30,421 bases of DNA from IMG/VR virus record IMGVR_UViG_3300009634_000151, positions 1 to 30,421 of that record. One strand, written 5' to 3'. How positions within the stretch are numbered: the stretch's first letter is position 1; each line of letters opens with the position of its first letter. The notes beneath the pieces were generated by a model. It saw only the letters and a program-made list of their open reading frames with translations, was not told the DNA's origin and searched no databases. Of the stretch, positions 8,624-29,924 are shown piece after piece. Both the position numbers and the translations under genes were made by a program. The stretch is from a virus. Its lineage: Duplodnaviria; Caudoviricetes.

Positions 8624-9088
8624 CTATCCTCCCGGAATGTCCCGCAGGGCGTCTATCTCGACGCTCTTAACGAGAAAATAGACGGGGGCCTGCGTGCCCT
8701 CGTCGTTGATCGCATCTGCCGGTCTTATGTCCTGGACGCCGTCCGGGAATACCCCCGAGATGCGGAAAGAAAGGAGGGCGTTCTCGATCAGCTCCTCGAA
8801 GGCCATCAACTGCGACTGCGCGGCGTACGGGTCCTTCTGCTGGAAGCCCGCGTAGAGCATGGCCGTGTACGCTTCCTCGATTTGAAAATCCATGTAGCGC
8901 CCCGGCACCTTCTTCGGGCAGGTGAGCAGGCAGATCGGCAGATCGGCCGTCGATATCTCCACCCTGCGGCGGAAGGTGCGCAGGACAGTGAGGGCCTTCC
9001 CCCACGCGGCCTGGCAAAAGGCGGAAAGGGGGGCGTCCGACCCGAGGGCCGTAACTACGGCGTCAAGCGCCGGGTTGATGCTGGTCAT
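8624..9088 (-). CDS. Tail terminator/completion protein, putative
   Basis: About 154 aa starting MTSINPALDAV; size and position two genes upstream of the tail tube; LP.C.L motif. Confidence 0.55.
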   Translation of the reverse strand: MTSINPALDAVVTALGSDAPLSAFCQAAWGKALTVLRTFRRRVEISTADLPICLLTCPKKVPGRYMDFQIEEAYTAMLYAGFQQKDPYAAQSQLMAFEELIENALLSFRISGVFPDGVQDIRPADAINDEGTQAPVYFLVKSVEIDALRDIPGG

Positions 9089-9112
9089 CGCTGCCCCGGC
9101 AGCGAGCAAGGA

Positions 9113-9310
9113 AGCATGGAGCCCGCGCCTCCGGCGCTCTGGAGCATGGAGATGTTCAAGGTTCTATGTTCAATGTTCAATGTTGCCCCCTTGGGGCGTT
9201 CAAGGTTCGAGGTTCAAGGTTCAATGTTAAATTCCTCTCTTTCCCCAACTTTGAACCTTGAACCTTGAACATCCGTAAGCCTTGAACCTTGAACCCTGAA
9301 CCTTGAACAT
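9113..9310 (-). repeat. Heptamer palindromic element (A plus B)
   Basis: A arms with purine loop, GCGCCTCCGGCGC mini-hairpin and AGCATGG units. Confidence 0.9.
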
Positions 9311-9312
9311 CA

Positions 9313-9462
9313 TTACTGCGCGGCGTTCGCCTGATCGGTGATTGCCTTGAGCGCATCCGCCGTAGGGGCTGCCGCAAGCTGGTCTTTCAACGTCTGGTTT
9401 TCGGCCTTGAGCGCGTTGAACCTTGCGATCAAGCCCTGTACTGCCTGAGTTAATTCGTCCAT
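9313..9462 (-). CDS. Small coiled-coil protein (49 aa)
   Basis: MDELTQAVQGLIARFNALKAENQTLKDQLAAAPTADALKAITDQANAAQ*; AGGAGG SD. Translated by hand. Confidence 0.7.
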   Translation of the reverse strand: MDELTQAVQGLIARFNALKAENQTLKDQLAAAPTADALKAITDQANAAQ

Positions 9463-9475
9463 GATATATGCCCTC

Positions 9476-9751
9476 CTATTGGGTTTGGTTTACTGCGTCC
9501 GTAAGCGCTTTCATCGCCTGGTCGGCGGGAGCGGCGGGAGCGGCCGGTATGGCCGGCTGCTTAGGCTGCGCCCACATCTCGATGAGATCCCGGACCTTGT
9601 CCGTCTTCACGCTCGGGTGATAGATCGCGATGATCTTGAGGATGAAAAGGACGGCGCCGGGGATTGCCGCCATGAACAACGAATAGTTGGCTGCCACGTA
9701 GCCCATCCACTGGTTTGTAAAGAGGGCCGGTAAGGCCGCTACGGGTGGCAT
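9476..9751 (-). CDS. Small membrane protein (holin-like candidate)
   Basis: Hydrophobic segment YSLFMAAIPGAVLFILKIIAIY; lies in the lysis region. Confidence 0.55.
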   Translation of the reverse strand: MPPVAALPALFTNQWMGYVAANYSLFMAAIPGAVLFILKIIAIYHPSVKTDKVRDLIEMWAQPKQPAIPAAPAAPADQAMKALTDAVNQTQ

Positions 9752-9755
9752 GGGA

Positions 9756-9920: not shown

Positions 9921-9953
9921 AATACGGTCCTCCTTTAAAGTGCCCCGAAGGGC

Positions 9954-10538: not shown

Positions 10539-10546
10539 AAATCCTC

Positions 10547-11041
10547 CTATAGTTTGATGGGCGGCCCGAAGATCGCCAATTTTGAAAGGTCGCCCGGTGT
10601 CAGAATATCCCCCTGGATTCCGTAACATCTTTGAAGCATTTCCGAGCATACGGTATTCTTGGGATTAATTTTTACCCGCTCCACGGCCAGCTTGAAAAGG
10701 TCCGTGTAGTCGTAACTCATGCCGAGGAATTTCAGGGCACAAAGCCCTATCTCGTGTCGCTTGGCTTCGTATTCGGGCTTCAGCGGAAAGACCGTACACT
10801 TCTTCGTCTCCCTGGCCAGCTTCCCGGCGAGGTCATACATCACAACGCCCGTTGCTTCGGCCTCCACGGTGAGAACAATGTCAGGGTATTCCGAAAAGAC
10901 CATCACCATCCCGGCATGACAATACTCGCTGTGCGAGAGCTTTTCTATTGCTTCGGACAAGAGGTCTTTGCCGCTGTAGAGAAGGCAATCGCCAGCCCGA
11001 AGGGTGGATTTAATGCGGTTGAAGGTTGTAAGGTCCATCAC
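10547..11041 (-). CDS. Permuted papain-like amidase (YiiX/YebB-like NlpC/P60)
   Basis: GDCLLY, HAGMV (His), YDY and VCSEM (Cys) in the circularly permuted order. Confidence 0.8.
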   Translation of the reverse strand: MMDLTTFNRIKSTLRAGDCLLYSGKDLLSEAIEKLSHSEYCHAGMVMVFSEYPDIVLTVEAEATGVVMYDLAGKLARETKKCTVFPLKPEYEAKRHEIGLCALKFLGMSYDYTDLFKLAVERVKINPKNTVCSEMLQRCYGIQGDILTPGDLSKLAIFGPPIKL

Positions 11042-11046
11042 TTCTC

Positions 11047-11213
11047 CTCGCTACGCTCGAAGCAGCATGGAGCACGCTCGCTGTGCTCGCTCTGGAGCAT
11101 AGAGCATAGAGCAGAGAGCAAAAGGCCGTTCAAGGTTCGGTGTTCAATGTTAAAACCCCGTCTGTTTTTAAACCTTGAACCCTGAACCTTGAACATCTCT
11201 ATGCTCCATGCTG
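11047..11213 (-). repeat. Heptamer palindromic element, nested B-A-loop-A'-B'
   Basis: AGCATGG/AGCATAG arm, GTTCAAG arm, loop, CTTGAAC arm, CTCTATGCTCCATG arm. Confidence 0.9.
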
Positions 11214-11224
11214 CCTTTGCTGTT

Positions 11225-11731
11225 CTATCGCCCGCGATAGAACAAATGCTTGCCGATCTGCGCCGGCGATGCCGGCTGCAACTTGTCCGCCCAGGAAGGC
11301 TTCGGGCTGCCCTGGGCGTAGTACATGAAAACGTCGCCGGTCGAGAAGGGGCTCGGGATCCTGCCGGCCCAGACATCCCGGAAAACCGCGAGACACTGAA
11401 AGAGTGCGCCGGCGTCTGCGGGGCCCCACTTGAACGGCGTGAGGACGTGCGTCTTCGGGTCGGCAAAGGCGTCGAAGTTCTGGGCGATGGCCCGGGCCTT
11501 GAGATACTCGGGGTTGTCGACCGAGAGGTAGCAGCTGAAGGCCGCCTGGTGAAAGCAGACCGTAGCCACGTCGTTGCCCTGAAAGCTCGGATGGTCGACG
11601 CGGTTCTTGACTACCCAGGCCACGGCGACTTTGCCTTCCGTGCTCTCCCCGCCGGCCTCGAGGAAGACCGTCTCCCCGCCGATTCGGTCCGCAGAAAGCG
11701 CATGGAAGTATTTCATATCTTCCGGTCTCAT
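11225..11731 (-). CDS. Cell wall hydrolase (SleB/Hydrolase_2 family), probable endolysin
   Basis: VFLEAGGESTEGKVAVAWVVKNRV, AFSC, C-terminal PSWA...QIGKHLFY. Confidence 0.85.
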   Translation of the reverse strand: MRPEDMKYFHALSADRIGGETVFLEAGGESTEGKVAVAWVVKNRVDHPSFQGNDVATVCFHQAAFSCYLSVDNPEYLKARAIAQNFDAFADPKTHVLTPFKWGPADAGALFQCLAVFRDVWAGRIPSPFSTGDVFMYYAQGSPKPSWADKLQPASPAQIGKHLFYRGR

Positions 11732-11746
11732 AACGCCTCCGGCGTT

Positions 11747-11880
11747 AGCATGGAGCAGAGAGCATGGAGCAGAGAGCGTGGAGCTTTAAAAACTCTATGC
11801 CCTATGCTTTCTTTGCTCTTTGCTGCGCCTTTGGCGCGGGCTCCATGCTCTATGCTGTCTCTGCTGTCTCTGCTGCTTCT
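11747..11880 (-). repeat. Heptamer palindromic element (family B)
   Basis: AGCATGG/AGCAGAG arm versus CTCTATG/CTCCATG arm, with a GCGCCTTTGGCGC mini-hairpin. Confidence 0.85.
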
Positions 11881-11894
11881 CGCGTCGGAGGGTT

Positions 11895-12173
11895 TCATTT
11901 CGTTAACCTCTGCAGTACCTTGTCTATCTTGCCGTCGAGCTTCTCCAGGCCGTCTTTCATATCCTTTCTCAGTTCCCCTACCTGGCCGACCCAATTACCC
12001 TTACATTCTGTGCAAGTGTCCTTAAACACGACCTTAGCTTCCATTTTCTCTTTCCACTCCTCCAGGGCCTCGACCTTAACCTTGAGGATGTTAATGGTGA
12101 TCAGAGATCCTATTGCCCCGCCAAAGATTGCTACGAGAAAACCAACCGCTATTTCTACGATCACCGTTGCCAT
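11895..12173 (-). CDS. Single-TM coiled-coil protein (holin-like)
   Basis: MATVIVEIAVGFLVAIFGGAIGSLITI followed by a charged coiled coil; directly upstream of the endolysin; GGAGGA SD. Confidence 0.65.
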   Translation of the reverse strand: MATVIVEIAVGFLVAIFGGAIGSLITINILKVKVEALEEWKEKMEAKVVFKDTCTECKGNWVGQVGELRKDMKDGLEKLDGKIDKVLQRLTK

Positions 12174-12214
12174 CTCATCCTCCGCGTGCCGCTTCAAGGG
12201 TGGTCATGGGGGCC

Positions 12215-15016
12215 TTATCCTGCCGTCCCTGCTATCAGTTCATCCGGGGTCACAAACTGCGCGTCCCCACTGTTGACCATCGAGGCGAAAGCATCGGCGT
12301 CGAACATGCCGTTTGCTAATGAGTTAGTTGAGTTGACATGCCCGCCCCAGGACCACAAGCCCCTGCTCTTAATCAATGCATAGACCCTCTGCCCCCATGC
12401 CGGGTCGGGTGTCGAAGTAACCGAAACATTTGTGCCCGCGCTGGCAAACGTCATCATGTTCGTGCCGGCTACCGCGTCATGCGCCGTAGGGTAGATATTA
12501 CAGGTCTGGTTGGTGAGCATTTCGGCCCAGTATATCGCGCCTGCCGTAATCCCCGTAGGCATCACATCCCCGCTGAATTTGACGGGCTTCGGATAGCCGA
12601 TTGTCCATGTAACGGTAGAGCCGAGGGTGACGACATTCGTTGATGTGTTGACCGTCGCCGTTAAGGTTTGGAGACCGGCAGCGGAATAGACCCATGAAGC
12701 GAAAGGGGCATACCGCTGGTCCCAGAGAGACGTTATGTGAGTAGACCCGCCGAAGTTCTGATGGCCCACAACTATATCGGCATACTGGCCGAGGAAGGTA
12801 TAATGGTCATAGGAGGTCCACCCGTAGTCACCCACAAGGCTCATCACCCGCGCTCTCGGCAGGTTATTTGCGGCAAAATAGTTCTGTGCATAAGCTATGG
12901 CCGCAAGTTTTTGCGAGGCCGTGAGGCTTATCCAGTTTGTCGAGCTTGGCTGCGCCGTGTAGAGGCCAAGGCTGTGACCCGATGCAATGAGGTCTTGAAA
13001 CTGCGCGAGCGTCAGATGGCTCGCCACACCCACTTCCAGCGGGCAGGTGTTGAACGTTACGGACGCCTTGCCGTGAGCGCCGGATGCCGTAAGCGGCAGG
13101 GAGCGCAGATAGGCCGCGAATGCATATTGTTGAGAATACGTGCCGTCCGTATAGGCAAGGACGTACCCGGTAGAGTTGCGGCTTTTGAAGGCAAGTAATT
13201 CATCGAACGTGACCGATGGTATGTCGCCTATCGCGTTGACGGTGAGATAGTAGTCTATCTTTGAGACGGTTGTAAGTGTAAACCCCGAATCCTGAGAGTC
13301 TGGATCATCGAAAACAATAGGCGCTTCGTACCAGGAAACACCCGGCGTGTGAGTCGAGTCCCAGAGAATGTACGTCGCGGTCTTTGCTCCGCCGTCCGTC
13401 AGAATGACTTTAATTCCCGTGATCCTCAAAAAATCTGTAGTCTGCCCTGTAGTGCCCGGCCAGATGTAAAAGCGGAGCATTCCCTGGCAGCCGCTAAGAT
13501 TTGTTGCCGAGATGGTCTTGTAAAAATGGTTGTTAGTCGCCGTCCCGTCAGGCGTTGCCTCTAATGCCTGTGTGCCGACCTTATAATTGGTCGCGTCTGC
13601 CGCAAGGGTCGTCGTGGCAGCCGTCCAGCCACCCGTAGAGGAAAAGGTTTCCTGATAGATTTGCTGGCCGACATAGTTGTACCGGGAGGTAAGGGTTTTG
13701 CGATCCATGAGAGGCTGCACGTCATAGCCCATGGCTTCCGTGCCGACGAAGAAATAGCCGCCCCCGATCCAAGCCGTCACAGTGGCGTTGTTCCGAAAAG
13801 CGAGGCCACCCGTCGATGTGCCTTCACGGTATATTTGGCTCGTAAAGCTGTCAGTCGAATAGAAGGTCAGACCGCCCCCGCCGTCATTTGAGCCTTGCTG
13901 AATAAGTAATTGGCCAGCAGAAGCACTCGGGATTATGCCTACGCCCACCTGCCCGTTGAGGATGTAAAGGGTTTCTGTCGCGTTATTTCTGAAGGTCAAT
14001 GCTCCGGAACTTGTCGCCTTGCGGTATATCTGCGCTGTGTTGCCGCTGAGGGACTGGAGGACGATACCACCGTTGCTATCATCGGAAGGCTGGACCTGCA
14101 AAAGACTGTAGCCGCCGACGCCCCAAGTATGGGAGCCGGTAGACTGAAGGGGGCGGCCCGCCGTGGTCCCTGAATCGGGGACCGTGCCGGAAGGGGGAGC
14201 TTGCCAAGACGAGTTTCCGTTGCTATCGGACGTCTGAACTTTTCCTGTGCCTGCGCCCGTCGCTAAATCAAGTGTTGCACCGCCTGATGGTGCCGTCAGG
14301 GTAAGCGCCCCGCCAAGAAAAGTAAACGTCCTTGGTGTCGTGCCACCGGCAAGGGAAAAGCCATCGGCGTTGGATGTCAAAGTAAGACCGCTAACCGTTG
14401 TCCCGCTTATCGTCCCTCCAGTGATGGCGACATTTGCCGAATTGTTCACCGGCTGCCCGTTTGACCAGCCGCCGACAGAGGCAGAGACAGGAAAATCGGC
14501 CGAGGTGAAATACCCGAGGGCGGCCTTGAGCTGGGCGGCGTTGAGGAATGACCAGGTGCCGGCGGAGAGGGAAGGATAGCCGGAGAGCGCGGAGGAATCT
14601 ACGCCAATCCCGCCCTGGGCGGGCGTCACCTGGGACTCCCACGTGGGGGGTGCGGCAGGGCCGTTCGAAGTAAGCACCTGTCCCGCTGAGCCGGCCCAAT
14701 TCCCGTCAAGGACCTCCCAATCGGCCCCTATCCAGTCCGGATCGGCGACAACAGCGGCGGGGAACAAAAAGAGCAGAGAGAATAAAAGTAGCATGGAGCT
14801 CGCGCCTTTGGCGCTCCGGAGCAAACGGCTGTTCAATGTTCGATGTTCAACGTTCAATGTTGCCCCTTCGGGGCTGTTCAAGGTTCTATGTTCAACGTTC
14901 AATGTTGAAACCCTCGTCTTTTTCCCAACCCTGAACCCCGAACCTTGAACCTTGAACAGTTCTTGGGAACTTTGAACTTTGAACCTTGAACTTTGAACAT
15001 TCCTTTTAGCTTTCAT
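12215..15016 (-). CDS. Large fibre/adhesin-like protein with signal peptide and degenerate polysaccharide-deacetylase-like domain
   Basis: 933 aa, Gly/Ser/Thr-rich; fibre-like motifs GQVLTSNG, GKVQTSDSNGNSSWQ, NGQVGVG; NodB-like segment LAYTDG...HLTLAQFQDLIASGHSLG; element inserted after MKAKR. Confidence 0.65.
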   Translation of the reverse strand: MKAKRNVQSSRFKVQSSQELFKVQGSGFRVGKKTRVSTLNVEHRTLNSPEGATLNVEHRTLNSRLLRSAKGASSMLLLFSLLFLFPAAVVADPDWIGADWEVLDGNWAGSAGQVLTSNGPAAPPTWESQVTPAQGGIGVDSSALSGYPSLSAGTWSFLNAAQLKAALGYFTSADFPVSASVGGWSNGQPVNNSANVAITGGTISGTTVSGLTLTSNADGFSLAGGTTPRTFTFLGGALTLTAPSGGATLDLATGAGTGKVQTSDSNGNSSWQAPPSGTVPDSGTTAGRPLQSTGSHTWGVGGYSLLQVQPSDDSNGGIVLQSLSGNTAQIYRKATSSGALTFRNNATETLYILNGQVGVGIIPSASAGQLLIQQGSNDGGGGLTFYSTDSFTSQIYREGTSTGGLAFRNNATVTAWIGGGYFFVGTEAMGYDVQPLMDRKTLTSRYNYVGQQIYQETFSSTGGWTAATTTLAADATNYKVGTQALEATPDGTATNNHFYKTISATNLSGCQGMLRFYIWPGTTGQTTDFLRITGIKVILTDGGAKTATYILWDSTHTPGVSWYEAPIVFDDPDSQDSGFTLTTVSKIDYYLTVNAIGDIPSVTFDELLAFKSRNSTGYVLAYTDGTYSQQYAFAAYLRSLPLTASGAHGKASVTFNTCPLEVGVASHLTLAQFQDLIASGHSLGLYTAQPSSTNWISLTASQKLAAIAYAQNYFAANNLPRARVMSLVGDYGWTSYDHYTFLGQYADIVVGHQNFGGSTHITSLWDQRYAPFASWVYSAAGLQTLTATVNTSTNVVTLGSTVTWTIGYPKPVKFSGDVMPTGITAGAIYWAEMLTNQTCNIYPTAHDAVAGTNMMTFASAGTNVSVTSTPDPAWGQRVYALIKSRGLWSWGGHVNSTNSLANGMFDADAFASMVNSGDAQFVTPDELIAGTAG
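14789..15000 (-). repeat. Heptamer palindromic element, in frame in the 5' end of the 933-aa gene
   Basis: Encodes NVQSSRFKVQ...TLNVEHRTLNSPEGATLNVEHRTLNS without a stop. Confidence 0.9.
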
Positions 15017-15504
15017 TCGCAGCTCAACTGGATGGACGTTATCGAGCCGGAGGTGATCGCGCTCGTCACGTAGAGCGACGTGATGTGGTGCATCGTCGCC
15101 AGCTTGGTGGCTCCGGCGCTCGTTATCGTCAGGTTCTTCGTTGCCGCGCCGTTCGCGTCCTCGTTGACGGTGACCGCGATATTGACCGGCGAGCCGGCGG
15201 TATCGATCTCCAGGACCTTCGACCCCTTGCAGTACTGGACGTTGACGGCGGTCTCACTCGCCCCGGATGACGTCTGGTTCGTGGCCAGCACCCAGGAGTA
15301 AGAGTACGTGTCGTGCCGCTGGACCTCGGTCATGGAGACGTTGCCGGCGAGGGCGGGGCAGAGAGCCAAGAGCAGCAAAAGCAGCATGGAGCAGGGAGCA
15401 AAAGCCTGTTCAATGTTCAACGTTCGACGTTCAAGGTTAAAACCGCTCTTTTCCCAACTTTGAACTTTGAACCTTGAACCTTGAACATCCCCTGACCTTC
15501 TCAT
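15013..15504 (-). CDS. Small beta-rich protein with signal peptide
   Basis: MRR + element + LLLLLLALCPALA, then a Thr/Ser/Val-rich domain; ATGA-coupled at both ends. Confidence 0.7.
   Translation of the reverse strand: MRRSGDVQGSRFKVQSWEKSGFNLERRTLNIEQAFAPCSMLLLLLLALCPALAGNVSMTEVQRHDTYSYSWVLATNQTSSGASETAVNVQYCKGSKVLEIDTAGSPVNIAVTVNEDANGAATKNLTITSAGATKLATMHHITSLYVTSAITSGSITSIQLSCE
15383..15488 (-). repeat. Heptamer palindromic element, in frame in a gene 5' end
   Basis: Encodes DVQGSRFKVQSWEKSGFNLERRTLNIEQAFAPCSM. Confidence 0.9.
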
Positions 15505-16025
15505 TTCGTCTCCTTTTCGATCTCTTCCTCAAAAATCGCCTTTATCGCGCCGCCTGAGTCGAAGCGCGTGAGGCCGTCCGTGAGGTAATCCCTGGGACCG
15601 TACTTGCGGGACGAGCCGGTGCCCTCGCGGATGACGCGGGCATAGAGGGCGGAATCGAAGATGACGGTCTCGAAAGGCCCGGCGGTGAACGAGCCGGCAG
15701 GACCGGATTTCGCTTCACCCGGATGGAGCCAATCGAGGAGCTGCCTCAGGAAGCCTGTCCGGGCAGGGACAGGGTAGGCGCCCGCGCCTTCGTAACTTCG
15801 GAACATGACCTTATCGCCGGATTTCTTAGTGAAGCCGACATAGTCCGTGCGCTGGTCTTTCGATGCGCCGCCTGCCCCGCTGAGCCAATACTGGGCGTTT
15901 TCGAAGACGCCGGTGCCTACGCGCGTGAGGGCGCGGTCTATGGCGGCGGGGATCCTCGCGGCGTGGGCATCGAGGTTCTCGATCACTACCTTGTCGCCTT
16001 CGACGGTCACGCTTATGTCGAGCAT
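15501..16025 (-). CDS. Neck/tail-completion protein (HK97 gp10-like), putative
   Basis: PVPARTGFLR, YARVIREGT...YGPRDYL motifs; position after head-tail adaptor. Confidence 0.65.
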   Translation of the reverse strand: MLDISVTVEGDKVVIENLDAHAARIPAAIDRALTRVGTGVFENAQYWLSGAGGASKDQRTDYVGFTKKSGDKVMFRSYEGAGAYPVPARTGFLRQLLDWLHPGEAKSGPAGSFTAGPFETVIFDSALYARVIREGTGSSRKYGPRDYLTDGLTRFDSGGAIKAIFEEEIEKETK

Positions 16026-16034
16026 CAGGGTTCC

Positions 16035-16157
16035 TCGCTGCGCTCAAAACCGTTCAAGGTTCGATGTTCAACGTTCAAAGTTGAAAACCCCCTGTTTCAT
16101 AAAGCCGTTCAATGTTCAAAGTTTCTAACCTTGAACCTTGAACCTTGAACATTGAAC
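16035..16157 (-). repeat. Heptamer palindromic element (family A)
   Basis: GTTCAAG and TTGAAC arms, plus CGCTGCGCTC sub-motif. Confidence 0.9.
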
Positions 16158-16160
16158 GCC

Positions 16161-16619
16161 TCATCGTCCCCATAAAAACCCTTCACGCCGGCGGAAGTGC
16201 GTCGTCACGAGCACGCCGGAGGCGAAGTCGCCCGATTCGGTGCCCCTGCTGGTGGTCAGCACGAGCAGGTTCTGGTTGATGATCCTCTCCGCCTCGGCCC
16301 GGTAGTCGTCCCGCTGCTTCGTTTCGGATTTGACATCGAACTCCTGGCCGGCGGCGAGGACGTTCACCAGGCGCTTGTTGATGCGCCTGTCGAGCAGCTC
16401 GGCGGCGGTAAGGCATTTTTCCACCCGCGCGACCTGCGTGGGCGTCGGAGCGACCGTCGAGTTATAGACCAGGTCCCCGACCCTGCCTTCGAGCAGGGTG
16501 GACTGTTCGGTAATGACCCCGAGGACGAACGTGGTAAAACCGTCGTCGTCGGGGATATCGAATATCTCCTTGGTGAAGCCCATACCGCTCGGGCCGATGA
16601 TGTCGGATGCGTTAATCAT
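16161..16619 (-). CDS. Head-tail adaptor protein, putative
   Basis: 152 aa, helical character, two genes after the major capsid gene; synteny only. Confidence 0.5.
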   Translation of the reverse strand: MINASDIIGPSGMGFTKEIFDIPDDDGFTTFVLGVITEQSTLLEGRVGDLVYNSTVAPTPTQVARVEKCLTAAELLDRRINKRLVNVLAAGQEFDVKSETKQRDDYRAEAERIINQNLLVLTTSRGTESGDFASGVLVTTHFRRREGFLWGR

Positions 16620-16620
16620 T

Positions 16621-16737
16621 CGCTTCGCTCACCCGCGCCTGCGGCGCGGACAATGTTCAAGGTTCAATGTTCAGGGTTCAAGGTTGAAACCGCCCTCTTT
16701 CCCAAACTTTGAACCTGGAACCTTGAACTTTGAACGT
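16621..16737 (-). repeat. Heptamer palindromic element (family A)
   Basis: Arms around loop GGGAAAGAGGGCGG; CCGCGCCTGCGGCGCGG mini-hairpin and CGCTTCGCTC. Confidence 0.9.
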
Positions 16738-16739
16738 CT

Positions 16740-16913
16740 CTATTCGTCGTCGGTGCCGTCGTCCGTCCCGTCGTCTCCGCCGTTATCCCCGCCGTTGTCC
16801 TCGGGGTCCGTGCCGTCGCCTTCGTCCATGTTGCCGTCCGTCACGTTAGGATAGTCGACCGTTCCGGGGGCCCCATCGCCATAGCCGTCGATATCAGTTC
16901 TCTCGCCTTCCAT
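16740..16913 (-). CDS. Very acidic small protein (57 aa)
   Basis: MEGERTDIDGYGDGAPGTVDYPNVTDGNMDEGDGTDPEDNGGDNGGDDGTDDGTDDE*; AAGGAGG SD. Translated by hand. Confidence 0.7.
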   Translation of the reverse strand: MEGERTDIDGYGDGAPGTVDYPNVTDGNMDEGDGTDPEDNGGDNGGDDGTDDGTDDE

Positions 16914-16930
16914 AATCCCTCCTTAAGGGC

Positions 16931-17064
16931 TGTTCAATGTTCAAAGTTCAAAGTTCAACGTTAGAACCTTTCTCTTTGCAAACCTTGAACCCTGAACCTT
17001 GAACCTTGAACATCTCCATGCTCCAGAGCGAGCACAGCGAGCGTGCTCCATGCTCCATGCTGCT
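16931..17064 (-). repeat. Heptamer palindromic element (A plus B arm)
   Basis: Immediately after the capsid gene stop. Confidence 0.9.
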
Positions 17065-17069
17065 TCTGC

Positions 17070-18041
17070 TTACGCCAGCGCGCACCTCTGGTGCTGCAGC
17101 GCCTCTCCGATGATGCCGTTGTATGCGCCGGTCCAGACGTAGGCGGCGCCCAGCACCAGCTCGTTCCGCTGCGGGGGCCTCAGGTTCAGGTCCTCCCACT
17201 CGCCGCGCTTGTTCTTCCCGCCGGGCAGGGAGACGTAGTATGACGTGTTCGCAATCTTCGTCGTGGTGATCACCGTGCCGATGTTGTAGACGACCTGGTT
17301 GGCGTTCACATTCGGCATCGAAAAGCTCGATGCCATGGCCCGGAGGACCCGGCCTCTCAGCGTCGGGTTGCAGGTGATCGTGAAGATCGAGTTCTCGTCG
17401 ACCGGGTAGCCGGCGGCCTGGAGGTTGACCAGGATGTTGGCGCAGGCGGTGTTGATCGTGGTGACATCGTCCGTAACGTAAGCCTGGTTGATGCCGGCGG
17501 CGAGGGCCGCCAAAAGCCCGTAGAAGATCACGGCCTTCTTGTCGAACCACCTGCGGACGGTATCGGCGGCCAGGTCGTCGATGAGGTAATACTTATTGAA
17601 GCGGATCCAGTCGTCGAGCAGGTTGTAGCCCCCGATGAACCGGAGCATGCCGACGTTCGTGAGGGCGGAGGTCGGGATGTTCGACAAGCTCGCTTCCTCG
17701 CCCGGCTGGCGCTGGTAGAAGGTCACGCCGCCCGTCACGTCGAGCATGTCGAAGCTGTCGATCTGGCTCGCCCGCATGTCGACCTCGTCGAAGAGCATCT
17801 CGTACCCGCGATCGGGGAACTTGATCGTATCGCTCATGACGAGGATGACAGGGACCGGCCCCATCAAGTTCGGGTCGGCGGCGGAGATCTTCTGGCCCTG
17901 ATAGGCCAGGCCGGGCACCTTCGAGGCCTGAATCCCCTTGATGAACGTATTCAGCGCGGCGACGATCGCGTCCCTGCGCTCCGTCTGCGGGATGCCGTCA
18001 ATCTTTTTCCAGTCGAAAATTTTCTTTCCGTAGAGTTCCAT
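17070..18041 (-). CDS. Major capsid protein, putative
   Basis: 323 aa, AAGGAGG SD, downstream of protease/decoration genes and upstream of neck genes; no diagnostic motif verified. Confidence 0.7.
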   Translation of the reverse strand: MELYGKKIFDWKKIDGIPQTERRDAIVAALNTFIKGIQASKVPGLAYQGQKISAADPNLMGPVPVILVMSDTIKFPDRGYEMLFDEVDMRASQIDSFDMLDVTGGVTFYQRQPGEEASLSNIPTSALTNVGMLRFIGGYNLLDDWIRFNKYYLIDDLAADTVRRWFDKKAVIFYGLLAALAAGINQAYVTDDVTTINTACANILVNLQAAGYPVDENSIFTITCNPTLRGRVLRAMASSFSMPNVNANQVVYNIGTVITTTKIANTSYYVSLPGGKNKRGEWEDLNLRPPQRNELVLGAAYVWTGAYNGIIGEALQHQRCALA

Positions 18042-18084
18042 GGCCTTCTGTGCCCTCCTTTGATCGATTTCGCGTTTATGCGCT

Positions 18085-18214
18085 GTTCAATGTTGCCCCT
18101 TCGGGGCTGTTCAAGGTTCTATGTTCAACGTTCAATGTTGAACCTCGATCTTTTTTAAAACCTTGAACTTTGAACCTTGAACTTTGAACATCCCTGAACC
18201 CTGAACCTTAAACA
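18085..18214 (-). repeat. Heptamer palindromic element (family A)
   Basis: Arms plus GCCCCTTCGGGGC mini-hairpin, upstream of the capsid gene. Confidence 0.9.
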
Positions 18215-19044: not shown

Positions 19045-19089
19045 CCTCTCTCCCGAACCTTGAACTTTGAACTCTGAACCTTGAACCTT
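19003..19089 (-). repeat. Heptamer palindromic element whose loop contains SD plus ATGA stop/start
   Basis: Loop GGGAGAGAGG-ATGA-GGGTC. Confidence 0.9.
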
Positions 19090-19090
19090 C

Positions 19091-20068: not shown

Positions 20069-20213
20069 CGCTGCGCTCCAAAAGGCTGTTCAAGGTTCAA
20101 TGTTCGATGTTCAACGTTAAAACCATCCTCCCTTTCCTGAACCCTGAACTTTGAACTCTGAACCTTGAACATCTCTATGCTCTATGCTCCATGCTGCTCT
20201 TGCTCTATGCTGC
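20069..20213 (-). repeat. Heptamer palindromic element (A plus B arm)
   Basis: Arms around loop GGAAAGGGAGGATGG. Confidence 0.9.
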
Positions 20214-23162: not shown

Positions 23163-23294
23163 GCCCCTTCGCGGGGCGGTTCTATGTTCGATGTTCAAGG
23201 TTGCCTCCCTTGGGGGCGTTCAAGGTTCTATGTTCAATGTTCAAGGTTGGACGCCTTGGGGGCGTTCAAGGTTCTATGTTCAATGTTCAAGGTT
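23163..23294 (-). repeat. Heptamer element, family-A 3' arm downstream of the bracketed gene
   Basis: Three blocks of GTTCTATGTTCAATGTTCAAGGTTG-like units separated by GC mini-hairpins. Confidence 0.85.
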
Positions 23295-23306
23295 GGACGC
23301 CTCGCA

Positions 23307-23636
23307 TTAAGTCCATTTTTGCCAGCTCCAAAACTCCTTTGATCGGAGCGTCAAGGTCGTCCCGAGCGAAACCACAATCTCCACCAGGTTGCAGAAATAA
23401 TGGGAGAGATTGCAGCAGACGGACCAAATGCAACGACCTATTTTGTGGATGAGGACGTATTCGACGGCTTCGTGCGTGATCGCTCCGGCCCGTTGAAGTG
23501 CCAGCCGGTTCTCGGGAGCCGGCGCGTAGAGATAAATCGTACCGTCGGGCATCCACGCGGCGGTCTGCTCTGCCAACCATAAATTCTGGTACTGGTCGAC
23601 GAGATGAAGGTTTTCCTCGGTGATGATGACTCTCAT
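23307..23636 (-). CDS. Hypothetical protein with THEAVE (HExxE) motif, lying between the two arms of an element
   Basis: ATG at 23636 preceded by AAAGAGG; MRVIITEENLHLVDQY...GTIYLY...ITHEAVEYVL... Confidence 0.6.
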   Translation of the reverse strand: MRVIITEENLHLVDQYQNLWLAEQTAAWMPDGTIYLYAPAPENRLALQRAGAITHEAVEYVLIHKIGRCIWSVCCNLSHYFCNLVEIVVSLGTTLTLRSKEFWSWQKWT

Positions 23637-23640
23637 CCTC

Positions 23641-23746
23641 TTTACCGAACCTTGAACCTTGAACTTTGAACCTTGAACATCCGTAAGCCTTGACCCCTTT
23701 CTCTTTACCGAACCTTGAACCTTGAACTTTGAACCTTGAACATCCG
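23641..23746 (-). repeat. Heptamer element, duplicated family-A 5' arm
   Basis: 43-bp direct duplication (23641-23683 and 23704-23746); supplies the C-terminus and stop of the ATP-grasp gene. Confidence 0.85.
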
Positions 23747-25069
23747 GGATCTCTGGTGGCGCGGGCCGAAGTTCAAGAGGTCGGAGGCGTTCTTCGCCGG
23801 CGGCGCCGTCGACGGTCCGCCGAAAGCAAAGTCCTTTCCGAGCGTGTTGAGCTTCTCGACGGTTTTGTTCATCTCCCGAATAAAATCGCCGTCGAAATAA
23901 ATGTTGTTGCACTGGATCTCCCGGGCCACCCGGCCGGCCGAGTCGAGGGAGGCTTGGTACGTGTCGCCCTGGCCGAGGGCCGTCGCCACGACCGTATCCC
24001 CCGGGACGAACCAGTAATCATCTTCCTTGAAAGCGCAGCGGCGGAAGCCGACCTGGGGCTTCAGTTCCTTCGGGAAGCGGATGGCGCGGAAGAGCTTATC
24101 GTCGTCGGTCGCTACCGTGATCTGGCTGGCATAATCATAGCCGCCTGAGATCTGGACCTCCACGTCCTCACCGTGCGCGACCTTCCAGACGAGCTCGTTG
24201 TAATTCGAGATGTAGTGCGCCTGCAGGCTCGAGCAGGGGAAGGGGAGGCGCGCCGTCGGGTCGATGGCGTAGACGCGCTCGCCGTCCCAGAGGAACTCCA
24301 TCGAGATGTTGCCGCGATAGCCGGAATCGGCGAGGGACTTCTGCATCTTCTGAAAAAACTCTGTCTCGATGCCGTTCGTGTCGATCCAGTGGGCCGTGGT
24401 CCCGGAGCCCTTGATCTCGATCGTGTAGGCGAAGGGGCGGATGAATTCCCTGCCGTTGAAAAAGGCGTCGAAGCCTACTTCGATCCCCGGGGACATCAAG
24501 TTGATGAGGAACCAGAGAGAGTCGAGATACGGGCCGAAGTTCGCCTGGGTGAGGGCAGTTTGGGCCTCGAGGACGGTTGAGACGTCCTTGGTCGGGAAGT
24601 TGCCGCGATATTTGCCGACCTTGAGGAAAAAGCGGAGCTTCTTGAGAGGGTCCTTCTCGTCCTTGTCCTCGTGGGCTTCGATGAAGTCGAGGACGCCTTT
24701 CATCCCGGTGACGACCTCGCCGTCGGGCACGCCTATGCCCATGCCCTTGAGGGCCTTCCAGCCGTAAACGCGGTCGTTCTCGATGCGCGTCCACTCGGCG
24801 GAGGGTCCGAATACCGCGATGCCCTTTTTGCGCAGGCTGTCCGCGAGGCCCCCGAGGAAGCAGTCGACGATATAGACCATGTCGACGTCGTAGAGGACCG
24901 AGCCGAAGTCTTCCACGTAGGTGAGCGGGAAGCCGTCGCCCGATATCTGGTCCTGGAGGTATGGGTAAGCGCCGGAGCCGCCGGGGCAGTGGAAGACCTT
25001 GTAATCCTCGGCGAGCTTGACGGCGTGGTCGAGGGCGAGGTTGTTGTCGATGAAGAGTATGCTTTTCAT
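23705..25069 (-). CDS. ATP-grasp ligase, PurD (GAR synthetase)-like
   Basis: LADSLRKKGIAVFGPSAEWTRIENDRVYG..., GIEVGFDAFFNG, GYRGNISME, IDPTARLPFP. Confidence 0.75.
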   Translation of the reverse strand: MKSILFIDNNLALDHAVKLAEDYKVFHCPGGSGAYPYLQDQISGDGFPLTYVEDFGSVLYDVDMVYIVDCFLGGLADSLRKKGIAVFGPSAEWTRIENDRVYGWKALKGMGIGVPDGEVVTGMKGVLDFIEAHEDKDEKDPLKKLRFFLKVGKYRGNFPTKDVSTVLEAQTALTQANFGPYLDSLWFLINLMSPGIEVGFDAFFNGREFIRPFAYTIEIKGSGTTAHWIDTNGIETEFFQKMQKSLADSGYRGNISMEFLWDGERVYAIDPTARLPFPCSSLQAHYISNYNELVWKVAHGEDVEVQISGGYDYASQITVATDDDKLFRAIRFPKELKPQVGFRRCAFKEDDYWFVPGDTVVATALGQGDTYQASLDSAGRVAREIQCNNIYFDGDFIREMNKTVEKLNTLGKDFAFGGPSTAPPAKNASDLLNFGPRHQRSRMFKVQSSRFKVR

Positions 25070-25087
25070 GTTATGTCTCCGGTGGGA

Positions 25088-25202
25088 AGCAGAGAGCAGA
25101 GAGCAAAGGGCTGTTCAATGTTCGATGTTCAACGTTGAACCCTGAACCTCGAACCTTGAACATCTCCATGCTCCATGCTGCTTTTGCTCCATGCTCCATG
25201 CT
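25088..25202 (-). repeat. Heptamer palindromic element, nested B-A-A'-B'
   Basis: Fills the portal / ATP-grasp junction. Confidence 0.9.
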
Positions 25203-25207
25203 GCCGT

Positions 25208-27514
25208 TCATTCCGCCACCGGGGCGGTGCTGCAGCGACAGCGGGGATGCGTGCCAATGCCGGGTATCGGGCAGGAGTCGATGTCGTACTCTCCGGCGAG
25301 GGCCTGACATTCTTCGCAGGCGTCGGGCGAGGGGACGAAGTCAACCCTCTTCGTGCCTTCCTCGCCCCATTCGTCGAGCTTGGCGCCTTCCGCCGCGGAG
25401 GTCATTTCCGTGCGGGCGAGGCGCTCCCAATCGGAGTTGGCGGAGCCGAAAAGGGATTCGAGCCTGGTGGCGACGTGGCGAGGGTTCGTGCCGGCCAGGG
25501 TCTGGGCTTCCATCTCGGGGAGGATCCTCTGGACGATGGATTTCGTCGCGTCGTCCTTGACGAGGGCAAAGCCGTCGGTGCAGAGTTGATCGTAGACCTG
25601 GCTGTTCTTGATGAGATCGAGGATCGGGCGCTCCTTGCCGGCAAGCGTCGCCGCCTGGATGAGCCCGAGCGAGTATGCCTGGCCGTAGTATTTGCGCACC
25701 GGCGAGTCGGCATCGTCGCTATCGTAGCGGCCGATGAATTGTCTCATGGCCTGCATGATGGCCGAGCGCTGCTCCTCGGTGAAGGAGAAGAGGTCGTCGT
25801 CTGCTTTAGCCGAGGAAGCATGGAGCATGGAGCATGGAGCAAAGGACTGTTCAAGGTTCAAGGTTCGATGTTCAAGGTTGAACCCTGAACCCGCGCCTTG
25901 CGCCCGGACAGCCAGATCGCCCGAGGACGTGCGGGTGAGCGGCAGGACGGCCTCAGTCTCCGCCTCGCCCATGACGCCCACCGCGCGGCCATTTCCATGG
26001 GGAGACTTGGAAGCGGGAAGCTCAAGGATTGTGAGGACCTGCTTGTGCAGGTCGGACCAGTCGGAGGCGAGGCGATCGGCATAGGCGTTCTCGACCTTGT
26101 CCAGGGCCGGCCAGGCAACGGAGCGGCGAAGTTCCTTCGCGTGAGAGCATTGAGCAGAGAGCAGAGAGCATAGAGTTTTAGAGCCCTTTGCTCCATGCTT
26201 CCCTTGCTCCATGCTCTCTGCTGCTTTTGCTCTATGCTCTATGCTGCCTTTGCTGCTTTTGCTTGCGGGCGCGCTCGCGGGCGACATCATGTCCGCCTGT
26301 GCATTCAGGAAACGCGCGCGGGCCTGTTTTTCGATGTCGACCAGATTGACCTGCGCCCACTCCAGCCACCAGTCGCCCCTCTTCCAGGTGCGGCCCCGGA
26401 GGAGAAGCAAGTTTCGGACGAGGTTGTGGAAGTGCGGCATCTTCGCCGCCTGGCGCGTGGCGATGTCCGACTTGAGTACTTCTACCTCGACGCCGGCGAG
26501 GGCCTGGGTGGAGCTCCAGTGCATGCCGAGCATCCAGGGAGGCAGGCCGGACTTTGCGATGATCTGCTCGAGGACGTGGCGGGCCGGCTCTTCGACCGAC
26601 ATGATCTCGCCCTTGGCGCCGATGACATCTATCTCGATTTCTGAATTGGTGTCGATGGCGCGGACGAAATCGGCGGAGCGGCCCTCGCGCTTCGCCCTGA
26701 CCGCCGTATTGAGGTCGGTCTCGAGCGTCTTGCGGCGGGCCTCCAGGTCCATGCCGTCCTTCTTCGAGGTCTTGTAGATCACCGAGAATGAAGGGTCCCC
26801 GAACCTTTCCCACTGGTTCCCGAGGGCGTTCTGCATGGTGGCGAGGATCTTCGCGACGAACTCGCAGGACCGGAAAAGGGGACAGCCGTAGGGGTTTTGG
26901 TTTTCGTTATCGATCGAGAAATAGATGAGCTGCTCCCGGCGCAACTCGCGGAAGCTGACGTCCGTGTCGGACCGCTGGAAGATGTTGACGCCTTTGGGGG
27001 TGCGCTGGAACCTGACGAATTTCGAGTCGCCGGTGCGCAGGCCGGTTATGTCATCGCGCTCCTCGTTGACCACCCATTCTCCGAGGGCGAAGCCCTGCTC
27101 GAAAGCCTCGTTCGTGAGGCTCTGGTGGAACGCCTGGAGGCCCGTCTGGATGTCGTTCACCTTGACGTTGTGCATCCATTCCCGGATCTCCTCGACGAGG
27201 GCGGCATTGTTCCCCTTGACGACGAGGTGGCCGTCGAGGCTGACGAGCCGCCTGATCGCCGCGTCGATAACAGGAATTGCCTCGCGAAGGAATTCATAGA
27301 ACCAGGGCTCGACCTTCCGGGCAATATAGTTGGCGAAATAGGGGGTGAGGAGGCCCTGGCCGTCGTTGGGCCGGAGCTGCCAGCCGCCCTGGGGAGAGAG
27401 CGCCCCGGCCGGTATTACCGGCATCACGTCGCCGGGGAAGACAGGGAGTGCCTTGCCAAGGGCGCGGAGGACGCGGCGGACGAAACCGTTCAAGGTTCGA
27501 CGTTCAATGTTCAA
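25208..27514 (-). CDS. Portal protein fused to MuF/SPP1 gp7-like minor head protein
   Basis: Follows TerL; portal-like NPYG.P.F, SGLPPWMLG; C-terminal RLARTE...CEEC...HPRCRC of the MuF family; start uncertain (TTG inside an element). Confidence 0.85.
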   Translation of the reverse strand: MNIERRTLNGFVRRVLRALGKALPVFPGDVMPVIPAGALSPQGGWQLRPNDGQGLLTPYFANYIARKVEPWFYEFLREAIPVIDAAIRRLVSLDGHLVVKGNNAALVEEIREWMHNVKVNDIQTGLQAFHQSLTNEAFEQGFALGEWVVNEERDDITGLRTGDSKFVRFQRTPKGVNIFQRSDTDVSFRELRREQLIYFSIDNENQNPYGCPLFRSCEFVAKILATMQNALGNQWERFGDPSFSVIYKTSKKDGMDLEARRKTLETDLNTAVRAKREGRSADFVRAIDTNSEIEIDVIGAKGEIMSVEEPARHVLEQIIAKSGLPPWMLGMHWSSTQALAGVEVEVLKSDIATRQAAKMPHFHNLVRNLLLLRGRTWKRGDWWLEWAQVNLVDIEKQARARFLNAQADMMSPASAPASKSSKGSIEHRAKAAESMEQGKHGAKGSKTLCSLLSAQCSHAKELRRSVAWPALDKVENAYADRLASDWSDLHKQVLTILELPASKSPHGNGRAVGVMGEAETEAVLPLTRTSSGDLAVRAQGAGSGFNLEHRTLNLEQSFAPCSMLHASSAKADDDLFSFTEEQRSAIMQAMRQFIGRYDSDDADSPVRKYYGQAYSLGLIQAATLAGKERPILDLIKNSQVYDQLCTDGFALVKDDATKSIVQRILPEMEAQTLAGTNPRHVATRLESLFGSANSDWERLARTEMTSAAEGAKLDEWGEEGTKRVDFVPSPDACEECQALAGEYDIDSCPIPGIGTHPRCRCSTAPVAE
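25818..25891 (-). repeat. Heptamer element, in frame inside portal-MuF
   Basis: Encodes GSGFNLEHRTLNLEQSFAPCSMLHA. Confidence 0.85.
26143..26262 (-). repeat. Family-B element, in frame inside portal-MuF
   Basis: Encodes SKSSKGSIEHRAKAAESMEQGKHGAKGSKTLCSLLSAQCS. Confidence 0.85.
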
Positions 27515-27617
27515 CGTTGAAACCCCCCTTTTTCCCCGAACCTTGAACCTTGAACCCTGAAGGGACTGTTCAATGTTCGATCTTCAACCTTGAACCCTGA
27601 ACCTTGAACCTTGAACA
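27488..27617 (-). repeat. Double family-A element at the TerL/portal junction
   Basis: Two consecutive arm pairs; second loop GGGGAAAAAGGGGGG. Confidence 0.9.
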
Positions 27618-27626
27618 ATTGTTGCA

Positions 27627-29717
27627 TCATGCGAAGAGGTCCTCTGTCTCCATAGATAAAAGCCCGGCCAGTTTCTGGACGCGGTCGCTGTCGATCAGGT
27701 GGTCGTCCGTTTTTTTGTAGATCCTGTGCTTCTCGCCCGCGTGGCATGTATGGTTCGGATACATGAAGACGTAGTCGGGGTCCGGAGGATACTCGAGCTC
27801 CTGGCGCTGCATCTTCTTGACGAGGAGGTCCGTCGCCAGCTCTTTGAGGGTGATCTTGACGGGCTTGTTCGTCTTCGCGTCGATGATGGGGTTGCCGTCC
27901 TCGTCTACGTTGTCGGAGGTCGATTCGAACATGAAGCCGCGCAGGCGGTCCTCGTAGTGCTTGTGGGCATACTGGGGGAGGCCCTGCAGGTCGTGGGCGA
28001 CGGCGGAGCCGGCGTTGCCGAAGTCCGTGCCCCAGATGATGTCGGAGGCGGCCTGGGGGGGCGCGGGGGAGACGGAAGGGGCGCCGTAGAGGTCGTCGAG
28101 CGCGTCTAAAGCCTGGCACTGCTGGTCGTAGGTGACGTGCTTGAGGTAGAGGCGCGCTACCTTGCGCTCGCGGCGGCCGAGGACGAGAGTGACGGTGATC
28201 TCTGAGGGGTCGCCCGAGAAGCCGAGGTCTGCCCCGCCGCGCTTGAGGCCGGGGACATAGAGGAAGAAGCCCTTGATGAGGCGGCGGAACTCGGACTCGC
28301 CATCATCGCCAAGGTTGAAGAAGGTCGATTTGCGGTAGACGGTCTCCAGAAGGAATATCTGTTTAGGTACTATATCCTCGGCAGAGGAGACAATCTCGCA
28401 CCGGTACCCGGTGGCCATCACCTCATTGTTGGCGGAGTCGACGGTGATCTTGAGGCAGTGGTAATCGGGGACCTCTTTTATACATGCTCTGAAGAGGTGC
28501 CACGGAAAGACAGTATCCTCCGGATCGCCGTCGAGTCCGAGCACGTTGTGCTTGTATTCCGGAGAATCCTCGCCACCGAATTGCTCGATGTAAAATCTCT
28601 TTCGCTCCGGGGTCCAGAAAGGACTCGGCATAAGGCTTTTTCCCCACTGAAAAAGTCGAAATTTGAGCGATTTAATATGTTTTGAAACGCCCTCGAAGGA
28701 TTCAACTTTGACCTCCTCATCAAGATTTGATGGACAACACTCCTCTCGCACTCTTGTCTTCGGAGGGGTGTCGCCCCAGCCATTATCGACTGCGGTGCCA
28801 TAGGGCTGTTCAATGTTCGATGTTCGATGTTCAACGTTAATACGATCCTCTCTTTCGGAACCCTGAACCTTGAACTCTGAACCTTGAACATCCGTAAACC
28901 CTGAACCTTGAACCTTCCGTGGGCTTGCCGGTTGCTGACGGGCGGCACGTTCGGCGAGCTTGTAGAACTCGCAGGAGCGGTCTCCGTCCGGCACGGAGTA
29001 GATGCGGGCGGCGCAGCCGGGCTTGAGCGCCCTCCAGAATTCCGACCACTGGCGCTTGTGCTTGTCCTTGGCAGCCTCGTCTCGCCATGCCAGCGTGCGG
29101 ACGTGGACGCCCCTGTAGGCTACACCGTCGTGGCCCGAGGGGCGGAAGTCCATCTTAAAATGATTAGAGAAATAAAAGGCGTGGTGCGGGTGCTTCTTCC
29201 AGCGGACGAGGGATTTCTTGAGGTCCGGGTTCCAAAGCATCTGGTCGTACATGCCCTCGATGATCTCGTCCAGGTGCGTCTGGAGCGGAGCGCCTCCAAG
29301 ACCCGAGCCGTTGGCCGTGATAAAGGCGTAATAGAGGGACAGGGCGACGATCTCGCGCGTCTTGCCTATCTCGGCCGCGTCCTTGTGGACGACACTGCCG
29401 CGCCAGCGGAGCGATTCGATCTGAAAGGTCCAGAAGTTGTACGGCTCGTCATGGTCGGGGTCCTCAGGCTCGCGCAGGAACATGGTGCACCAGAGATAGG
29501 GGTCCGCGCAGATGCAGCCGAGCTGGAACTCCTCGAGGGAGGAATAGGGGGCAGGGAATTCGGCGCGGGCGAGCTGGTGATACGTCCAGTCGTGGCGGGC
29601 GAGCCACGCCTCGAAATCGGAGCGGGGGACCATGATAGAGCGGTGCAGGTCGCGAAGCGCCAGGGGCTCTATGGCATCGTCCGCGGCGTGATGGGCATAG
29701 GCGACGGAACCGGCCAT
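27627..29717 (-). CDS. terL: Terminase large subunit
   Basis: Walker A-like AAEIGKT, Walker B WRDEAA, nuclease GADLGFSGD and DDHLIDSDR; upstream of portal; likely start ATG 29717. Confidence 0.85.
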   Translation of the reverse strand: MAGSVAYAHHAADDAIEPLALRDLHRSIMVPRSDFEAWLARHDWTYHQLARAEFPAPYSSLEEFQLGCICADPYLWCTMFLREPEDPDHDEPYNFWTFQIESLRWRGSVVHKDAAEIGKTREIVALSLYYAFITANGSGLGGAPLQTHLDEIIEGMYDQMLWNPDLKKSLVRWKKHPHHAFYFSNHFKMDFRPSGHDGVAYRGVHVRTLAWRDEAAKDKHKRQWSEFWRALKPGCAARIYSVPDGDRSCEFYKLAERAARQQPASPRKVQGSGFTDVQGSEFKVQGSEREDRINVEHRTSNIEQPYGTAVDNGWGDTPPKTRVREECCPSNLDEEVKVESFEGVSKHIKSLKFRLFQWGKSLMPSPFWTPERKRFYIEQFGGEDSPEYKHNVLGLDGDPEDTVFPWHLFRACIKEVPDYHCLKITVDSANNEVMATGYRCEIVSSAEDIVPKQIFLLETVYRKSTFFNLGDDGESEFRRLIKGFFLYVPGLKRGGADLGFSGDPSEITVTLVLGRRERKVARLYLKHVTYDQQCQALDALDDLYGAPSVSPAPPQAASDIIWGTDFGNAGSAVAHDLQGLPQYAHKHYEDRLRGFMFESTSDNVDEDGNPIIDAKTNKPVKITLKELATDLLVKKMQRQELEYPPDPDYVFMYPNHTCHAGEKHRIYKKTDDHLIDSDRVQKLAGLLSMETEDLFA
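28808..28916 (-). repeat. Family-A element, in frame inside TerL
   Basis: Encodes KVQGSGFTDVQGSEFKVQGSEREDRINVEHRTSNIEQ. Confidence 0.9.
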
Positions 29718-29734
29718 CACGGCGCCCACGGCGG

Positions 29735-29924
29735 AGCAAAAGCAGCATGGAGCATGGAGCATGGAGCAAGTGCAGCATGGAGCATGGAGCCCGCGCCTGC
29801 GGCGCTCCGGAGCAGAGAACTGTTCAAAGTTCTATGTTCAATGTTCAACGTTAGAAACATCTCCATGCTTCCTCTGCTCTATGCTCCAGAGCGAGCGTAG
29901 CGAGCGGGCTCCATGCTCCATGCT
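29735..29924 (-). repeat. Heptamer element (B arms enclosing an A 3' arm) at the TerS/TerL junction
   Basis: (AGCATGG)n ... (CTCCATG)n with GCGCCTGCGGCGC and GAGCGAGCGTAGCGAGC sub-motifs. Confidence 0.9.

Follow-up and report, generated by a model that had tools for sequence, protein, structure and literature searches.

Hairpin repeats of heptamer units in a phage late operon and the open frames that end on the downstream gene start

The 30,421-nt stretch of DNA analyzed here (the window; IMGVR_UViG_3300009634_000151, Caudoviricetes) is a linear virus record of 30.4 kb whose genes run on the minus strand, as do all of its insertions and spacers described below, and which carries hairpin repeats built of 7-nt units. 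A previous reading of the sequence alone had proposed that mini open reading frames (mini-ORFs) in these elements relay translation from the stop of one gene to the start of the next at nine junctions. We found that, more often than expected by chance, it is the long open frame that terminates on the start of the downstream gene. On balance, we consider it probable that gene-less repeat copies settled on former stop/start overlaps and that purifying selection kept the readable ones, sparing ribosome access to the downstream genes. The feature is real and smaller than had been claimed, namely a tolerance similar to that of interspersed repetitive units in mycobacteria (MIRUs), with moderate statistical support.

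Between positions 5812 and 29924, the window contained 24 clusters of the 7-nt units GTTCAAG/TTGAACA and GGAGCAT/ATGCTCC, most of which fold as long hairpins. Sixteen spacers carried elements; the remaining copies were located in frame inside genes, and the reading frame was open in every one of them. The loops were either short and purine-rich or held one unrelated ORF of 109 aa. The elements were concentrated in the late operon, among the head, tail, and lysis genes, with none at window positions 1-5800 and none in the 9.3 kb upstream in L114. Inverted repeats at the ends of the elements and a stable stem-loop were present, as in MITEs, which are miniature transposable elements bearing inverted repeats, and a search of the window against Rfam gave no match at the gathering score.

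The terL-portal junction (27488..27630) could be compared with element-free sites of the closest relatives, L119 and L130. These read ...cttcgcATGAA(C/T)GT, and their portal protein begins with MNVF; in the window, this ATGA likewise stands at the terL stop, with the nested hairpin and then TTGAAC after it, giving LNGF aligned to the Met of the relatives. The comparison shows that the portal gene originally started on the ATGA now left at the terL stop; the insert therefore parted the portal gene from its Shine-Dalgarno (SD) sequence and ATG. A 39-codon ORF (27630-27511, -4/-4) starts on this ATGA, crosses the hairpin (-62.7 kcal/mol, z=-4.5), and ends in TTGA at 27514. The portal frame opens on TTG 27514, and the TTG at 27493, which aligns with the Met of the relatives, has no SD sequence and lies where 86% of the bases are paired. 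As a separate observation, in four records of one lineage (L004 2258-2400; also L005, L030, and L049) the portal frame shifts after about 29 codons, just 3' of a 57-codon ORF running from ATGA to GTGA over the terL-portal junction; L004 was dropped from the final count of relatives because of this break.

Empty and filled sites at terL-portal differ as ATGAAC and ATGA...TTGAAC, and ATGA also stands at both ends of the elements at 19094/19044 and 11898/11731; no empty site was found for most of the other window junctions. In the relatives, the terL-portal junction was a -4 overlap in 29 of 73 deduplicated loci, terS and terL overlapped or lay within 4 nt in 63 of 81 (window included), and the 152-aa and 174-aa genes did so in 35 of 48 loci. 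Native overlaps or near-overlaps in L033 were found between the cement and glycosyltransferase genes (+2), between the glycosyltransferase and hexapeptide-repeat genes (-4), and at the 152-174 and 109-427 junctions. In the same record, native spacing precedes the capsid gene and follows the 427-aa gene; the window has no relay at either place. The 5' end of the mini-ORFs is best read as a fossil start or, where no start overlaps the upstream stop, as the GGAG-ATG of the repeat itself.

All 12 mini-ORFs described in the sequence-only reading were open and had the described ends. The nine relays built from them stood in part: a single exact ORF joined stop to start in 3 of the 16 spacers, in 4 when a +1 gap was allowed, and in 7 when chains through TTG restarts were counted. 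The exact ones were those of the terL-portal, glycosyltransferase-hexapeptide, and 92-aa gene-lysin junctions. The ORF of the second (19003..19094) has 17 codons (19094-19041) and runs from ATGA to ATGA in the loop, with the 3' arm in frame with the gene; it counts as -4/-4 only if the hexapeptide gene starts at 19044, a start that homology does not settle. This mini-ORF is also the tail of a 350-codon frame (20093-19041) that is open over the whole glycosyltransferase gene in another frame and is probably a high-GC shadow frame. At the third junction (11728..11898), a 56-codon ATGA-to-ATGA ORF (-4/-4) crosses a hairpin of the GGAGCAT/ATGCTCC type and ends on the endolysin start. One case is convergent: the lysin gene is common to the window and G007 (91% identity), yet the genes upstream of it and the inserts differ between the two, and each insert contains an ORF that starts on ATGA and ends on a lysin Met. 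The relay with a +1 gap, between the portal gene and a 454-aa gene (25069..25211), consists of a 46-codon ORF (25211-25071, ATGA to TAA, -4/+1) before an ATG that has its own GGAG; it is uninformative because all three frames would couple there.

Two of the nine claimed relays had no start at the upstream stop and were coupled at the 3' end only. In the spacer between the cement and glycosyltransferase genes (20065..20211), the ORF 20172-20065 begins at the element's own GGAG-ATG, 44 nt past the upstream stop, and ends in GTGA on the glycosyltransferase start; in that between the endolysin and C92-peptidase genes (11038..11227), the ORF 11196-11038 begins at the repeat's own ATG, 29 nt past the stop, and ends in GTGATG. 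In the terS-terL spacer with its repeat hairpins (29717..29943), the ORF 29866-29717 (or from TTG 29848) ends in TGATG on the terL ATG and begins 74 nt past the terS stop, so that this junction closes only via a previously unlisted ORF, 29943-29851, which opens on the terS stop, and a TTG at +2. Chains through TTG restarts were found at 16164-16025, in the spacer between the 152-aa and 174-aa genes (16025..16164; two ORFs, ATGA, TTGA, TGATG), and at 9313-9085, before the 154-aa gene (9085..9313; three ORFs, TAATG, +2 TTG, TTGA, ATGA). Among the seven element-bearing spacers that had not been listed, the one before the 427-aa gene (8140..8298) closes as a three-ORF chain from 8291 to 8140 (+2 ATG, TTGA, TTGA, +3; thus with +2/+3 gaps), and six do not close. 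There was no stop-to-start relay in the three element spacers within 16619..18207 (before the 323-aa gene, a 57-aa acidic ORF, and the 152-aa gene) or at 6627..6857, where the downstream gene has AAGGAG.

The in silico null shifted the frame through removal of 1 or 2 nt from the spacer, with both end motifs and the arm sequence kept. Five further virus records that carry the same repeat, including one that continues this phage, supplied an independent set of 23 spacers; gene starts in these records were judged visually on lists of ORFs rather than by homology. Two spacers with an unclear upstream gene or start (G001 5453 and G001 10807) and the in-frame intragenic copies were left out of this set. 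The 3'-end test, run in eight settings, asked for an ORF with a minimum length of 15-30 codons that ends at -4 or -1 on the downstream start.

Coupling at the 3' end exceeded this null. It was observed at 11-17 of the 39 pooled spacers, where the null predicted 4.6-8.9 (p=5e-5 to 9e-4 across the eight settings), at 7-9 of the 23 spacers outside the window (p=0.002-0.014), and at 4-8 of the 16 within it against 1.7-4.2 expected (p=0.008-0.05); in one setting, the pooled value was 11/39 against 4.9 (p=7e-4), with 7/23 outside the window (p=0.008). Exact single stop-to-start ORFs amounted to 3/16 in the window (1.6 expected, p=0.18), 4/23 in the other records (1.7 expected, p=0.04), and 7/39 in total (3.3 expected, p=0.015). 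For permissive chains, the values were 7/16 against 4.8 in the window (p=0.06) and 8/23 against 7.2 elsewhere (p=0.42).

The proposed course of events has few steps. Elements that are abundant in the host would land near stop/start overlaps of phage operons. A copy would survive if it is in frame as an N-terminal or internal extension of a gene, if a throw-away ORF through the hairpin ends on the next start so that ribosomes unwind the hairpin and reinitiate, or if it lies in a spacer whose next gene has a strong SD sequence. The earlier suggestion that ribosomes traverse the hairpin to the next start gains statistical support at the 3' end, and the portal gene fits it well, its SD sequence and ATG having been lost to the insert and only a TTG in a predicted hairpin of -63 kcal/mol being left. 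We infer that selection, and not the insertion step, gave the frame bias, and that the mini-ORFs may be translated and matter for expression; their peptides are probably waste.

Several results weigh against this reading. In the window alone, stop-to-start relays were not significant (p=0.06-0.27), and no long target duplication was found at its relay junctions. The 3'-end test was devised after the window had been seen, several definitions were tried, and the p-values are uncorrected. Among relatives with other inserts at natively coupled junctions, exact relays showed no excess (2/33 against 1.7 expected), and the 3' end was not significant there either (p=0.06-0.35). Most of the downstream genes keep an SD-like sequence before their start and therefore may not need coupling. 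At natively spaced junctions of relatives, the 3'-end test gave p=0.02 in one of the eight settings. A relay excess seen by eye in the relatives disappeared under the systematic test (5/38 against 3.8 expected, the three junctions of the window included).

In the strongest rival reading, the open frames are a by-product and coupling was never selected: the old overlap motif stands at both ends, one arm frame is free of stops, TTGA units supply restarts, and the genes use their own SD sequences. In a run of TTGAACN units, each frame stops at a TTGA, and the TTG contained in it opens another frame. Multi-ORF chains are uninformative because the TTGA units hand any frame to a TTG, and at six of the seven chain junctions the chains survived 44-98% of random 1-2 nt deletions. 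The sequence-only reading had itself cautioned that TTGA supplies overlapping starts and stops; this caution proved right and strips the multi-ORF chains of most of their value. In addition, most 3' arms contain one TCGA or TAGA unit, which leaves one frame open (LNVEHRTLN). It might be thought that these units arose to open a relay frame; this was largely dropped, as arms in five chromosomes usually contain such a unit (89 + 38, or about 127, matches with the unit and 12 all-TTGA matches without it, overlapping matches not being merged). In a few copies, e.g., G002 12371 and G007 2490, the TCGA/TAGA unit is shifted to the relay frame. The missing relay excess in relatives and the SD-like sequences mentioned above also favor a by-product. 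However, the 3'-end null keeps the end motifs and the arms, yet the observed values were about twice those expected, outside the window too, and the portal and terL starts have no SD sequence or a weak one. We regard a by-product as unlikely.

Among 96 genomes of the class to which G006 belongs, 14 contained the arm pattern, with up to 51 copies in one. In chromosomes of the likely host class, GTTCAA/TTGAAC arms with the same TAGA unit flank genes of four-helix-bundle or 23S rRNA intervening-sequence proteins (PF05635) in 2 of 20 loci (L274/L380 and L371), and inverted flanks scoring at least 16, mostly of other units, occurred in 8 of the 20. The best explanation of the hairpins is that they are gene-less copies of a heptamer-armed repeat family of bacterial chromosomes. 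An element that evolved its own SD-ATG, a stop-free 5' arm, and one open 3'-arm frame, so as to deliver ribosomes downstream wherever it lands, would account for the GGAG-N7-ATG TTC at the 5' end of the element, which starts the ORFs at 20172 and 11196, for the stop-free 5' arms, and for the arm frame open in most copies. Such a design is nevertheless very unlikely in our view: in chromosomes, most copies are single arms within wide spacers, 13 co-directional chromosomal gene pairs with arms gave 0/13 exact relays (1/13 permissive), inverted copies exist, loop and linker lengths vary freely, and the ATG is the mere complement of CAT in the other arm. The idea that the element is harmless by design, one of two offered in the sequence-only reading, finds no footing here, as the gene downstream originally started on the 5' ATG, most chromosomal copies have no relay, and the stop-free arm frame is usual there as well.

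The second idea was a translational gate, and nothing was found in support of a regulated one. In this scheme, a protein, e.g., a four-helix-bundle protein, binds the hairpins and controls the passage of ribosomes to the head and lysis genes; the same arms do flank PF05635 genes, and the elements do cluster in the late operon of this phage. Conversely, most relatives have no elements at these junctions and those that have them carry unrelated repeats, copies also occur inside genes and among the non-structural genes of G001, and no PF05635 gene was matched in the window or in four other phage records, all five being incomplete. We consider the gate highly improbable, and the same doubt applies to its particular form in which a host four-helix-bundle protein would bind cognate hairpins in late mRNA and gate head assembly, the portal and other genes being reachable only via a relay. 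It is hardly credible that the hairpins are excised from the mRNA or bypassed by ribosomes, rejoining the old ATG to its gene, as might be imagined from the long stems and the link to rRNA intervening-sequence proteins, since the frame stays open in all intragenic copies, something for which excision would create no need, and removal of the portal stem does not restore the frame (checked by eye).

As to insertion, junction sequence was duplicated around the insert at 2 of the 39 junctions (12 nt in G001 and 41 nt of the tail of the upstream gene in G007), one junction showed a 46-nt duplication of the element itself, and elsewhere duplication was at background level. A long target duplication as the general cause of the inserts was dropped, as it was not found at most of the 39 junctions.

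Retention of readable inserts recalls the MIRUs, reportedly described by Supply et al. in 1997. According to a 2025 review, MIRUs insert at start codons and their ORF couples to the gene at -4, the efficient range for coupling being -4 to +3 (PMC12548453); according to a 2011 review, they have tetranucleotide repeats and an ORF that overlaps both neighboring genes (PMC3184786). The phage elements are likewise short multicopy repeats in operon junctions, with downstream expression proposed to be spared, and some of them have an ORF overlapping the neighbors at -4 or the same tetranucleotide at both ends; unlike the fixed MIRU unit, they are built from 7-nt units in tandem, which form inverted arms, and their loops and linkers vary. 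Moreover, the start of their ORF is often the ancestral ATG of the gene, and only a minority of copies relay: the MIRU-type stop/start overlap (-4 or -1 ends) was found in 3/16 window spacers and 4/23 other spacers with the same repeat, not in most copies. The phages also belong with another phylum, their relatives lying in metagenome-assembled genomes (MAGs) of Desulfobacterota and Nitrospirota type, whereas the MIRU host is mycobacterial; the likeness is one of working, not of identity.

The PF05635 cassettes share with the phage elements inverted arms of the same heptamer family, the difference being that no four-helix-bundle gene lies between the arms of the window copies. Paired inverted repeat sites of heptamers or octamers are described, in the text available, for Geobacter metallireducens (PMC2700814), and paired heptamer arrays for Xanthomonas (GGGAATC, PMC4692102) and Beggiatoaceae (TAACTGA, PMC4679880). 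Those repeats, too, are tandem arrays of 7-nt units in many copies, frequently paired in inverted orientation; they lie near gene ends or starts and sometimes inside genes. Their unit sequences are different, and stop-to-start mini-ORFs are not described for them in the portions available. MITEs (PMC3184786) are similar in that they carry no gene, form stem-loops, and are joined in frame to ORFs of the host, and differ in that no consistent target duplication was found here and no transposase turned up, none having been specifically searched for. A literature search outside subscription papers and bioRxiv supplements revealed no relay ORFs in heptamer hairpins and no heptamer arms around four-helix-bundle genes, and the available text of the bioRxiv preprint 10.64898/2026.10.21.760802 had no relevant passage on such repeats.

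If the proposed reading is true, it explains how a hairpin of 100-200 nt can come to occupy the start codon of a phage gene that is essential, such as the portal gene, without killing it, and the MIRU idea would extend to an unrelated family of repeats, backed by a frame-shift null and by evidence from empty sites. The repeat-derived starts and N-termini of these genes would call for caution in annotation. The movement of heptamer-armed PF05635 cassettes and of their gene-less copies is less studied, and this phage provides 24 copies and clean empty sites.

In terL, a hairpin element lies in frame at 28808..28914, a spot where several relatives have other in-frame inserts. The region 28940-28720 is an insertion hot spot, as at least five relatives carry unrelated in-frame inserts in the same column range. 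Two elements are in frame inside the portal/head-morphogenesis ORF (25817..26245), and others (within 14771..15504) in the N-termini of a 163-aa gene (15486-15383) and a 933-aa gene (14998-14771), whose ATGA overlaps the upstream stop. Two tail-region genes of other records, in L267 (G005; 1403-768) and L268 (G007; 12973-13434), have a 3' arm in frame at the N-terminus; the first 50 codons of the G005 gene include no ATG, and its start may be a TTG of the repeat. The 109-aa ORF (23636-23307), which had no Pfam match, is wholly enclosed by 5' arms (23776-23645) and 3' arms (23290-23179) in a cassette-like layout (23179..23776), and an arm pair around an ORF was seen in two other virus records too. 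At 16913-16740, a very acidic 57-aa ORF lies between two hairpin elements; the matching genes of L033 have no such ORF between them. Repeats of 7, 8, or 9 nt from other families occupy the same junctions in the relatives L010, L015, L018, L019, L026, L120, and L193, which suggests that each prophage acquires the repeat family of its host.

The gene order of the window is a small terminase candidate, terL (29717-27627), a Mu-type portal gene fused to a head-morphogenesis domain, cement, glycosyltransferase, and hexapeptide-repeat genes, the 323-aa gene, endolysin, and C92 peptidase, followed by helicase, PAPS reductase, and ParB. The terminase labels come from the sequence-only reading and the gene order, terL having no library match. 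The 323-aa gene, which we take to encode the major capsid protein by its position, matched a PHROGs family of unknown function. Relatives were found in MAGs titled Syntrophorhabdales (best segment, 71%), Desulfobacterales, Geobacteraceae, and Nitrospirota.

The non-coding stretch 18345-18265, upstream of the 323-aa gene, was near-identical to L033 6872-6950, though this relative is otherwise at 77% at the protein level. It has identical blocks of 16 and 22 bases, followed by a hairpin and a U-run, with no Rfam match, and is possibly a cis-regulatory RNA or a terminator. The helicase/PAPS-reductase/ParB block lies between tail genes both in the window (5574-1) and in L267 (12972-19046), and G005 extends the window into the tape-measure region. 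Finally, a small GC hairpin (GCCCC...GGGGC) recurred between successive 3' arms, at 9197-9185, 8200-8188, 6735-6677, 14872-14860, and 18105-18093.

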